From positions 1-28,122 of IMG/VR virus record IMGVR_UViG_3300021356_000129: 28,122 nucleotides of DNA. One strand, written 5' to 3'. Shown one piece after another: positions 16,448 through 19,612 of this stretch. This DNA is from a virus (lineage: Duplodnaviria; Caudoviricetes). Every line of letters starts with the position of its first letter. Within the stretch, counting starts at the first letter, position 1. The translations under genes were made by a program, and so were the position numbers. The notes below the pieces were generated by a model. That model had not been told where the DNA came from and did no database searches. It saw only the letters and a program-made list of their open reading frames with translations.

Positions 16448-16455
16448 AATAAATA
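16448..16455 (+). promoter_or_regulatory. T4-type late promoter (AATAAATA)
   Basis: Immediately after the gp7 stop, 26 nt upstream of the ATG at 16482. Confidence 0.7.
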
Positions 16456-16481: not shown

Positions 16482-18017
16482 ATGGCATACCAAGGTATTA
16501 ATACTGGCACAACGCCAAATGATGGTACTGGTGACTCTCTAGTTGCTGGTGGTATAAAAATCAACAGTAACTTCACTGAGATTTATAGTCTCCTTGGTAA
16601 TGGTTCTACCTTGGTAAGTGGAATTGTATCTTCGATAATTGCAGGAACAAATATTACGGTTGATTCTTCAACTGGCGATGTAACAGTATCTGCACCAACC
16701 CCAGTCTCTATTGCAACCACTGACGTTGATATTTCGAGAAACCTCAAGGCTGCTGGGATCACGACCTTAGGAGTTACCACCACAACTTCACTTCTGACTT
16801 CTGGTATCACAACTCTTGCAAGTCAAGGTGGTGTGACTACAACTGGTGGTGATTTATATGTTGGTGGAGATTTGTATGTACAAGATGATGTTGTCTATGA
16901 TGAAGTAACTGGTAGAAATCTCACTATTACTGGTGTTGGTATAATTACTCATGTGTCTGCCACTACAATAAGTGCTAGTGGTATCGGAACTGTTCGCGAA
17001 TTGTACTTAGATGATGTTATAGTATTAACAAATGGAAGACAGCTTAAGAATATTACTTCGCTTGACGCAATTACAACAAATACGATTGAAACTACCATTG
17101 CAAATTCACCAAATAATTTTAGTGATTTAAATGTAACAGGTGTCACGACGACAGATACACTCAGAGTAGTGGGACTTGCTACAGTCGGTAGTTTCCAAAG
17201 TTATGGAGAATCATCATTTGATACTCATGTCACCATTGGTGGTTCTGTTTACGTTGGTTCTGGTTTAAGTGTAACTGGTATTTGCACTGCTCAATCTTAT
17301 CTTGGTGATGGTTCAAATCTTTCTGGTGTTGTAACAACTCTGACTGGTGCTGATGGTTCTGGTCTGACTGGTATTACTACATTAATTTCTGCTGGTAGTA
17401 ACATCACAGTCACAACAAGTGCTGGTATTACAACCATCTCATCAACAGGTGGTGTCGGTGTAGGTACTACAAACGTTAGTACAAATTCGTTGGTTGTCTC
17501 TGGGGTATCAACGTTAGGTGTGGTAACTGGAGCCACATATTATGGTGATGGATCAAACCTGACAGGTATTTCTGTTGGTGTCGGAACTACAGCAAATGTC
17601 AGTACAAATACTTTGGTCGTCTCTGGAGTTTCTACCGTAGGTGTAGTCACTGGAGCTACATATTATGGTAATGCATCTTATATCACACATTCCAAGTGGG
17701 ACCTTGGTGCAGATGGATCCACACACTATCTCTTTACGGGCCCAGCTGGATTAAGTTCTACAGCAGATCCAGTCATCTACTTGGCAAGAGGACAGAATTA
17801 CGAATTTGTCAATAATATGGGTGCTCATCCATTTGAAATTCGTTCTTCAAATGGCGGATCTGCATTCTCAACAGGTGTTACAAATAATGCAGTGTCTAAC
17901 GGAACTCTGAGATTTGAAGTTCCATTTAGTGCACCAAACTCATTGTACTATCAATGTACATCTCATGCTGGTATGGGTGGAACGATTGTCATCTATCCAA
18001 ACCTGTTTACGGTCTAA
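16482..18017 (+). CDS. fibre/appendage-like virion protein with gp9/gp10-type N-terminus and C-terminal cupredoxin-like domain, 511 aa
   Basis: N-terminal 'INTGTTPNDGTGDSL..GGIKINSNFTEIY' is the T4 gp9/gp10-type N-terminal motif. Gly/Thr/Ser/Val-rich shaft with GDGSxLTG motifs. C-terminal 'HPF...LYYQCTSHAGMGG'. Confidence 0.75.
   Translation: MAYQGINTGTTPNDGTGDSLVAGGIKINSNFTEIYSLLGNGSTLVSGIVSSIIAGTNITVDSSTGDVTVSAPTPVSIATTDVDISRNLKAAGITTLGVTTTTSLLTSGITTLASQGGVTTTGGDLYVGGDLYVQDDVVYDEVTGRNLTITGVGIITHVSATTISASGIGTVRELYLDDVIVLTNGRQLKNITSLDAITTNTIETTIANSPNNFSDLNVTGVTTTDTLRVVGLATVGSFQSYGESSFDTHVTIGGSVYVGSGLSVTGICTAQSYLGDGSNLSGVVTTLTGADGSGLTGITTLISAGSNITVTTSAGITTISSTGGVGVGTTNVSTNSLVVSGVSTLGVVTGATYYGDGSNLTGISVGVGTTANVSTNTLVVSGVSTVGVVTGATYYGNASYITHSKWDLGADGSTHYLFTGPAGLSSTADPVIYLARGQNYEFVNNMGAHPFEIRSSNGGSAFSTGVTNNAVSNGTLRFEVPFSAPNSLYYQCTSHAGMGGTIVIYPNLFTV
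17451..17676 (+). repeat. tandem ~40-aa duplication inside the fibre gene
   Basis: GVGVGTT-NVSTNSLVVSGVSTLGVVTGATYYGDGS (from 17451) versus SVGVGTTANVSTNTLVVSGVSTVGVVTGATYYGNAS (from 17571); the DNA differs mostly at synonymous positions. Confidence 0.85.
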
Positions 18018-18024
18018 ATTAACG

Positions 18025-18032
18025 TCTAAATA
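18025..18032 (+). promoter_or_regulatory. T4-type late promoter (TCTAAATA)
   Basis: TAAATA core in the short intergenic gap, 20 nt upstream of the gp8 ATG. Confidence 0.6.
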
Positions 18033-18052
18033 AGAAAAAAGTCCTCTAACAA

Positions 18053-19612
18053 ATGGCTGCGATAATTACTGATCAACTGCGTATTTTGAATGCGAAGAAT
18101 TTTGTAGATTCTGTACAAGATTCTTCTAATTCCTATTATGCTTGGATTGGTCTTCCAGATGCTCCTGAGTTTCAGAGTGATTGGAATACTACTCCTCCTG
18201 CACCAAAGGATAGTTTGGATGACTCCAATTATTATTGGGACACCATGTTGGCTCTTAAAAAGATCAATGGTGGTGATGTAAGTCAGGTTGTAAGAAAGAT
18301 TTCTTGGCAGTCAGGTACCACATATGATATGTGGAGAAATGATATTGATAGGGATAACCCGTCTCAACCATCTGGAGCATTTGATATCTATGACTCCAAC
18401 TTCTATGTAATGAATAGTGAGTTCAAGGTTTATATTTGTCTATTCAATAACGCAAATCCAGAGAATAGCTTTAGAGGTGGTCCTTCTCTTGATGAGCCTA
18501 ACTTTACTGACTTAGAACCAAGAGAAGCTGGAAGTAGTGGTGATGGTTATATTTGGAAATATCTTTATACTATCAAACCAAATCAAATTATTAAGTTTGA
18601 TTCGACAAATTATATTCCTGTTCCAACTGATTGGGACACAAATGCATCGTATCAATCAGTCAGAGAAAATGCAGGAACAAGTGGTCAGTTAAAAATTGTC
18701 ACGATTAGAAATCGTGGTGTTGGTATAGGAACAGCAAACGTAACCTATACGAGAGTTCCTATTCTTGGTGATGGTAGAGGTGGTGAAGCAACTGTTGTTA
18801 TCAATAATGACTCTAAGGTAGAATCTGTCACTGTCTCAAAGGGTGGTGAAGGATATTCATTCGGTACACTTGATCTCGAAAGAGGTGGTGTTCCTACAGG
18901 AACAATTGCTCCAGTATTTGATATAATCATTCCTCCTAATGGTGGTCATGGTGCTGACGTTTATCGTGAGTTAGGTGCATATAATGTTCTCTCTTATGCA
19001 AGATTTGAAAATGACACTCAAAACCCAGACTTTATCACTGGTAACCAGTTTGCACAAGTTGGTATTGTCAAGAATCCAAAGGCATATAATTCTACAACCA
19101 ATTTGACACTTGATAAAGCAAGTGCAGTATATGCATTGAAATTAGTTGGTACTGGATACAGTGAAGCAAAATTCACAGCAGATACTTTTGTTACCCAAAC
19201 TGTTGGTCTTGGTTCAACTGCTGTTGGTAGAGTTGTTTCATACGATCAACAAACTGGTATTTTAAAGTATTGGCAGGACAGAAGAACTGCTGGTTTCAAT
19301 ACTGATGGAACAAAACTTACTACACCTCAGTATGGATTCGAACAATTAAAGTTCACTGCAGACCCTGTATCTGGTGGTAGCGTAGATATTATTCCTACAT
19401 CTGGTAATACGCTTCAAATTGACGGCGCTTTTACGGGTGTCTCAACGGTAATAAATAATCGTACCTACTACCTGGGTCAGGACTTCATTAAAGGAGTCTC
19501 TAATCCAGAGTCTGACAAGTACTCTGGTGACATCATTTATGTTGACAACAGACCTTCAGTTACTAGATCAGCTTCACAGAAAGAAGACGTTAAAGTTATC
19601 TTGCAATTCTAA
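18053..19612 (+). CDS. gp8: baseplate wedge subunit gp8
   Basis: 'MAAIITDQLRILNAKNF', 'W.SGTTYDM', 'FYVMNSEFKVYICLFN', 'DGYIWKYLYTI' and C-terminal 'YSGDIIYVDNR...R...QKEDVKVILQF' match gp8 of T4-like cyanophages. Confidence 0.92.
   Translation: MAAIITDQLRILNAKNFVDSVQDSSNSYYAWIGLPDAPEFQSDWNTTPPAPKDSLDDSNYYWDTMLALKKINGGDVSQVVRKISWQSGTTYDMWRNDIDRDNPSQPSGAFDIYDSNFYVMNSEFKVYICLFNNANPENSFRGGPSLDEPNFTDLEPREAGSSGDGYIWKYLYTIKPNQIIKFDSTNYIPVPTDWDTNASYQSVRENAGTSGQLKIVTIRNRGVGIGTANVTYTRVPILGDGRGGEATVVINNDSKVESVTVSKGGEGYSFGTLDLERGGVPTGTIAPVFDIIIPPNGGHGADVYRELGAYNVLSYARFENDTQNPDFITGNQFAQVGIVKNPKAYNSTTNLTLDKASAVYALKLVGTGYSEAKFTADTFVTQTVGLGSTAVGRVVSYDQQTGILKYWQDRRTAGFNTDGTKLTTPQYGFEQLKFTADPVSGGSVDIIPTSGNTLQIDGAFTGVSTVINNRTYYLGQDFIKGVSNPESDKYSGDIIYVDNRPSVTRSASQKEDVKVILQF
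19450..19457 (+). promoter_or_regulatory. candidate internal late promoter (AATAAATA) in the gp8 3' end
   Basis: Same octamer as the intergenic late promoters, ~160 nt upstream of the 19618 gene, which has no intergenic space for its own promoter. Confidence 0.45.

Follow-up and report, generated by a model that had tools for sequence, protein, structure and literature searches.

Does a marine phage display, at the end of one of its virion fibres, a domain built like a small blue-copper protein, and what could such a domain be for? The question is raised by a viral DNA of 28,122 nucleotides (hereafter the window), for which a sequence-only reading had proposed a type-1 copper cupredoxin domain in the last ~105 residues of a fibre protein with a gp9/gp10-type head. 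The window was identified as the baseplate module of a T4-like marine phage, with the order gp25, gp6, a gene for a gp7-like protein, the fibre gene, gp8, a VrlC-like gene and a neck gene (Table 1). A fibre gene occupies the same slot in RB11-B, S-B05, RN05-S, S-B43 and S-SM1. Because the window is collinear with the genome of RB11-B, a cultured Synechococcus phage, with ~72–76% nucleotide identity over most of its length, its host is probably a marine Synechococcus. The heptamer upstream of the fibre gene was called late-promoter-like by comparison with TATAAATA, the T4 late-promoter consensus. Other features of the neighbourhood are a SET-domain protein just 5' of the baseplate module (602–976; PF00856, E 2e-12), annotated as a methyltransferase in RB11-B, a 233-aa ORF (964–1665) matching phrog_3704, where it is labelled 'ferredoxin' while RB11-B labels it 'PurM', so that the labels disagree, and a YHYH domain at residues 1286–1380 of the gp7-like protein (PF14240, E 3e-26), a His-rich candidate metal module on the baseplate.

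Table 1. Positions in the window of the fibre gene, its parts and its neighbours
Feature	Position	Strand	Basis
gp7-like baseplate wedge protein, 4033 aa	4346..16447	+	PHROG_2885
ATAAATA, T4-late-promoter-like, upstream of the fibre gene	16449..16455	+	motif likeness
Baseplate-anchored fibre gene, 511 aa, 'gp9' slot between gp7-like and gp8	16482..18017	+	PHROG_677 (phrog_677 E 3e-51)
T4 gp10/gp9-type N-terminal anchor, aa 1–44, helix 18–38	16482..16613	+	Pfam, profile, model
Gly/Thr/Val-rich repetitive shaft	16614..17696	+	sequence; monomer model of low confidence here
Shaft repeat unit, tandemly amplified in MW02 phages; RB11-B/RN05-S DNA match stops here	17303..17372	+	DNA comparison
Cupredoxin-fold domain, aa 406–511, confident core to ~aa 505	17697..18014	+	AF2, Foldseek, VIA
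His449, first predicted metal ligand, followed by Pro (HPF)	17826..17828	+	conservation
Ligand loop Cys492-x2-His495-x2-Met498	17955..17975	+	sequence, conservation
Conserved intergenic stretch with late-promoter-like CTAAATA before gp8	18026..18047	+	RB11-B/RN05-S DNA matches again from the equivalent place
gp8 baseplate wedge gene	18053..19612	+	PF09215, phrog_438

The N-terminus of the fibre protein was examined by profile comparison. Pfam T4_gp9_10_N (PF07880) matched residues 4–44 above its cut-off (E 2.4e-6), and a profile built from the orthologues matched the solved structures of T4 gp10 (E 1.5e-12) and gp9 (E 2.9e-8), in agreement with the proposed gp9/gp10 head. The anchor helix is also present in the predicted model of the protein. 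T4 gp9 and gp10 are trimers, six of which are found per baseplate. By analogy, the fibre of the window would be a trimer present six times per baseplate, which would give ~18 metal sites per particle from this gene, and the gp7-like protein is the likely docking partner of the anchor. Homology to the T4 proteins consists of the anchor and of the position among the wedge genes. It is confined to the first ~45–90 residues, whereas beyond them the protein consists of a variable shaft of repeats and of an exchangeable tip, so that 'tail fibre connector' should be read as a putative database name only. The length of the shaft differs strongly among orthologues, in which whole proteins measure 215–1189 aa. 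It is expected to form the fibre; the full-length monomer model reached pLDDT 56, and Foldseek returned cupredoxins only with this model, none of the matches belonging to the shaft.

The C-terminal domain was modelled separately with AlphaFold2, using an alignment of 59 sequences as input. The model shows nine strands with pLDDT 96 and pTM 0.89, and among the Foldseek matches listed all were cupredoxin-fold proteins, 33 of them with E<=0.001. The best structural match was the N-terminal cupredoxin of the nitrite reductase of Hyphomicrobium denitrificans (PDB 2dv6, 6tfd), with a Foldseek E of 3.7e-6 and, as top match in VIA, a Z of 10.8 and an rmsd of 2.5 Å over 96 residues. The identity to this domain is 17–18%; it is part of a periplasmic enzyme with catalytic copper, whereas the window domain ends a virion fibre and is devoid of a catalytic site. 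The profile of the 59 sequences pointed in the same direction, as 39 of the 40 solved-structure matches listed were copper proteins and plastocyanins were matched with E 0.003–0.02. In the ESM Atlas, the domain adjoins viral clusters automatically named 'blue (type 1) copper domain' (score 0.90). The cupredoxin fold suspected from the letters is thus well supported by the structure prediction. 'Beta-sandwich' proteins of Pithovirus and Marseillevirus also appeared as structural look-alikes, compared by fold only.

Translation of the plus-strand ORF places Trp406, His449, Cys492, His495 and Met498 at nucleotides 17697, 17826, 17955, 17964 and 17973, and the coordinates and C-x2-H-x2-M spacing given earlier proved exact. 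The loop alone was rejected as proof, since the loose pattern C-x(1-4)-H-x(1-4)-M is matched six times when the window is read in all six frames. What lifts the motif above chance is the fold, the phmmer alignment of His449, Cys492, His495 and Met498 with all the copper ligands of plastocyanin 1b3i, and the conservation of these residues. From this alignment to solved sites, the four ligands would be expected to converge in a tetrahedral arrangement. The complete H/C/H/M set was retained in 281 of 305 domains from 251 fetched proteins (the His449 position being His in 293), and the four residues are among only seven invariant columns of the 59-sequence alignment, in which identities range from 28 to 98%. 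Two or more ligands were lost in 15 of 302 domains, against a mean of 3.4 and a maximum of 9 in shuffles; these cases are not independent, several sharing a protein, but ligands tend to be lost together. Between the window and RB11-B, pN and pS of the domain amount to 0.029 and 0.30, and in 15 orthologues all variation at the ligand codons is synonymous. Judged from these data, the four ligands are under purifying selection.

The residues surrounding the ligands allowed a closer assignment. In plastocyanin and amicyanin, the first His is followed by an Asn, the amide of which forms a bond to the sulphur of the Cys; in amicyanin, Cys+2 is a Pro. This second-sphere pattern is reversed in multicopper-oxidase sites. 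Among the 285 domains with intact H/C/H, Pro directly follows the His449 position in 281 and never occurs at Cys+2, while the x2/x2 spacing is found in 272. By sequence, the second sphere of the family reverses the amicyanin pattern and resembles multicopper-oxidase sites, and the domain is read as having an amicyanin-length loop without being an amicyanin, because of the Pro after His449 and its constant absence from Cys+2. Amicyanin itself (PDB 1aac; NCBIfam TIGR02657) shares the loop and the upstream His and was matched by VIA with Z 6.1. In contrast to amicyanin, the window domain scores 12.5 bits with TIGR02657 against a cut-off of 110.2, lacks a signal peptide and an amine-dehydrogenase context, and is fused to a fibre. 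The native metal is probably copper. Zinc has to be considered as the alternative, because the cytoplasm, in which the particles assemble, keeps free copper very low.

Type-1 sites are outer-sphere electron-transfer centres. The particle could accordingly be imagined to carry a redox shield, as in the oxidative protection suggested by the sequence-only reading, with Cu(II)/Cu(I) exchanging single electrons with superoxide, photo-generated radicals or oxidoreductases of the host surface, and thereby prolonging infectivity in sunlit water. The apparently tuned second sphere described above is consistent with this proposal, as are the hosts of the matches, which are cyanobacteria of the sunlit ocean and Pelagibacter. 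It is nevertheless rather improbable, as a type-1 site on its own performs no catalysis and ~18 one-electron sites make a small sink. Moreover, across the 305 domains the residues around the exposed His are small, polar and variable, with no conserved hydrophobic docking patch, and searches of the window with Pfam and PHROG found neither a partner oxidase nor any redox partner gene encoded near the fibre gene.

The same ligand set raised the question of whether the domain might be a plastocyanin-like auxiliary metabolic gene serving host photosynthesis, or a supply or sink of copper for the host. Support for this consists of the weak similarity to PF00127 and of COG3794 type, and of names, some family members being annotated automatically or in their sources as 'plastocyanin' or 'blue copper'. 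All four ligands align with those of plastocyanin and cyanophage PetE, but the window domain scores 14.7 bits with PF00127 against a cut-off of 21.2. Neither PF00127 nor TIGR02656 was found above cut-off, and the protein has neither a thylakoid signal peptide nor the stand-alone length of ~100 aa. It is fused to a baseplate anchor in a late-module context. Cyanophage PetE, by contrast, carries a signal peptide and a C-x2-H-x4-M loop, and true phage PetE aligns with the domain over the ligand loop only (11 of 28 residues). RB11-B possesses a separate true petE (PF00127, E 4e-20); a petE match was not found in the S-B43 record. On these grounds the petE reading was rejected, in line with the distinction from petE that had been drawn earlier, and an auxiliary or nutritional role is extremely unlikely. 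The inferred ~18 sites per particle would be too few to matter as a nutrient, and the same stoichiometry makes the metal scavenging that had been suggested unlikely.

A published case shows where the confusion may lead. ORF202 of phage S-SCSM2R was counted as a second petE among the photosynthesis genes, and its rows in the supplement give COG3794 with E 1.1e-5 and 'tail spike protein' as top database match (PMC12801897). This protein of 168 aa (L083:5788-6294) has intact ligands and is 40% identical to the window domain (E 8e-22). It sits among fibre-like genes, and neither a signal peptide nor a real match to the PetE of the same phage was found in it. The text available for that phage does not name ORF202 among the virion proteins (PMC12801897). 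Judged by sequence and gene context, ORF202 is a member of the fibre-domain family and not a petE. Some phage 'petE' calls are thus structural domains, which should not be counted as photosynthesis genes. The soluble plastocyanins described from archaeal viruses (PMC12998224) are, as far as that account shows, a different thing from the fibre domain.

Many phage fibres end in chaperone domains which are released. S-SZBM1_206, an orthologue that shares the anchor and has its C-terminal domain intact, is listed in the proteome of CsCl-purified particles with 9 peptides, 24.9% coverage and an emPAI of 0.98 (PMC9146016 Table 1), similar to the emPAI of 1.37 of gp8 in the same virions (PMC9146016). 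Because of this orthologue, the presence of the window protein in the virion, as had been claimed, is probable. An intact copy of the domain also occurs in a different fibre, S-SCSM1 gp141, which its record labels 'virion protein' (PMC9602691). The peptides of S-SZBM1_206 are known at the level of the whole protein only, which is compatible with a clipped folding aid that leaves mature particles without the domain, as is the C-terminal position of most copies. Internal copies and an allele with a plain knob speak against clipping, no match to peptidase S74 or another chaperone family was obtained with Pfam, and this explanation is considered very unlikely.

In order to define how constant the domain is, orthologues were collected by the anchor and, independently, by gp8. 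The 80 anchor-selected loci yielded 53 complete, distinct proteins after removal of truncated and duplicate ones. The domain was present in 32 of them, always with intact ligands, and absent from 21. It was internal in six of the 32, with further shaft and a knob at the end behind it. With gp8 as anchor, 17 of 21 complete anchor-headed upstream genes contained the domain, while in 44 of 80 loci, scored by eye, the gp7-like gene directly preceded gp8 with no anchor-headed gene in between. A core, essential tip was ruled out by the 21 proteins without domain and the 44 loci without the gene. The placement at a fibre tip holds in that the domain forms the C-terminus of a gp9/gp10-anchored protein, but the tip is not intrinsic, the domain being internal or absent in close orthologues.

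The clearest comparison came from four cultured phages of Synechococcus MW02 (RB11-B, S-B05, RN05-S and S-B43), the gp8 of which are 99.8–100% identical. The fibre of RB11-B ends in a cupredoxin domain 96% identical to that of the window, and in S-B05, RN05-S and S-B43 a plain knob of ~30 aa takes its place. Between RB11-B and RN05-S, DNA identity is 98.9% as far as the tandem shaft repeats and 99.6% from the intergenic stretch onward, which delimits a swapped cassette of ~640 bases. On this comparison, the shaft repeat and the intergenic stretch before gp8 are the likely upstream and downstream crossovers (Table 1). In the comparison of window and RB11-B, the synonymous divergence of the domain (23 of 76 sites) falls below that of gp8 (0.48–0.71) and gp6 (0.69). 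From 76 sites of a single pair, this suggests that movement between lineages is more recent for the tip than for the DNA on either side. The slot gene of S-B43 (L234:4001-5490) is annotated as two overlapping CDSs split within the tandem shaft repeat, which may reflect either an error of assembly or genuine slippage of the repeat.

Searches of the whole genomes of S-B05, RN05-S and S-B43 revealed a single member of the family per phage. It is a ligand-dead copy (F/A/V/M) within a fibre of 782 aa, and the same fibre with an identical copy is present in RB11-B (L237-L240). A codon-pattern search of the three genomes found no other in-frame x2-3/x2 loop, a search that very divergent copies could escape. 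As these three phages were isolated on the host of RB11-B, infection of MW02 does not require the tip, and the retention of the ligand-dead copy in all four phages implies that the fold is useful without metal. The domain is consequently regarded as accessory, being internal or absent in orthologues, persisting in ligand-dead form and missing from phages that grow on the same host. RB11-B and its three relatives offer a natural on/off comparison of the tip, testable without genetics.

These phages also bear on a possible redox or pH switch. In reduced amicyanin, the His dissociates; His495 might likewise come off when the site is reduced at the host surface, and could then serve as sensor of the host state or as trigger. 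The predominance of the amicyanin-length loop would fit such a switch, but phages without the tip infect the same host and no path is evident from a swappable tip to sheath triggering, which makes it a very improbable role.

An explanation in purely structural terms is the main rival of the one favoured below, although it is less likely than not. The cupredoxin would then be a compact beta-sandwich decorating or capping the fibre, with Cu or Zn only stiffening it, and without specific partner or chemistry. Ligand-dead copies do persist in fibres, those of P-SSM type and others being among the 305 domains; insertion is possible in-line, terminally or in tandem, and core residues other than the ligands show equal conservation. 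A simple bead does not readily account for the retention of the full set in 281 domains, including a weak axial Met that a structural Zn site would not obviously need, nor for the intact ligands of all 32 domain-bearing orthologues selected by the anchor. In addition, a much smaller knob finishes the fibre equally well.

The explanation favoured here, regarded as about evenly poised between right and wrong, is a likely trimeric baseplate fibre with an optional, swappable tip of predicted cupredoxin fold which would hold one metal, likely copper, and likely serves as an auxiliary attachment surface and not as an electron carrier for the host. The anchor, the shaft, the predicted fold and the selected ligands rest on sequence and model, and the presence in purified particles on the orthologue. 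In cupredoxins both termini lie opposite the metal end, and the site would therefore point away from the shaft with His495 exposed. Each domain would bind one metal ion and meet a putative partner on the host surface, with a benefit for attachment that may depend on host or water chemistry. Swapping of distal tips is a pattern known for fibre adhesins. An attachment role is suggested by the exchange of tips between otherwise 99% identical phages, by the seemingly recent date of this exchange relative to the divergence of gp8 and gp6, and by the occurrence of the family on many fibre scaffolds of myo- and podoviruses and in a surface-type protein of Patescibacteria. Several observations stand against it. 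Receptor-binding tips usually diversify, whereas the domain is the most conserved part of the fibre protein, a comparison biased by loci that were chosen by the domain. The plain-tip phages share the host MW02 with RB11-B, the domain is not distal in the six orthologues with internal copies, and a ligand-dead copy is kept in all four MW02 phages.

A further-reaching version appears unlikely as it stands. Abundant marine phages would display redox-active blue copper on interchangeable tips and, with the help of copper, recognise or sense the surface of the host. The tip would move between lineages as conditions favour it, and the virions in seawater would amount to a store of strong copper ligands that has gone unrecognised. 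It resembles the 'Ferrojan horse' proposal, in which metal sites of marine phage fibres, HxH iron motifs, were considered for host contact and as metal ligands of the ocean (PMC11705849). As described there, those sites are three-fold, axial, six-His iron sites (PMC11705849), unlike the self-contained His/Cys/His/Met site in a globular domain proposed here.

The fold and the type-1 site are textbook matter; the virion context is new to the literature searched, in which no virion-displayed type-1 copper site was found, subscription journals being outside the scope. Also new are the tip as an optional, swappable allele in near-identical cultured phages, the cultured on/off set that they form and the miscalled petE of S-SCSM2R. 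Should the site bind copper, the apparatus with which very common ocean viruses contact their hosts would bear a bioinorganic redox centre. This would have a bearing on how they adsorb to picocyanobacteria, which are copper-sensitive, and on the speciation of copper in the sea. Relatives of the domain are widespread: 3831 representatives clustered at 50% identity match it at E<=0.001 (the 150 best of which were fetched), and so do 347 records of cultured phages of Synechococcus, Prochlorococcus and Pelagibacter, many of them redundant isolates.

Cellular relatives were looked for with the window domain, in a scan that sees close relatives only, and two loci were found among 248 pattern matches. 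P0139, a bacterial-type protein with signal peptide, contains three domain copies with Phe as axial residue, and a scan with it, again limited to close relatives, found no cellular ones. Single copies were observed inside a surface-type protein of 2587 aa in a Patescibacteria genome (L229:1593-9356) and as a secreted, stand-alone cellular-type relative of 141 aa with intact ligands (L230:4887-5312). In P-SSM2, two adjoining fibre genes (L231:13687-23111) carry three intact copies of the domain.
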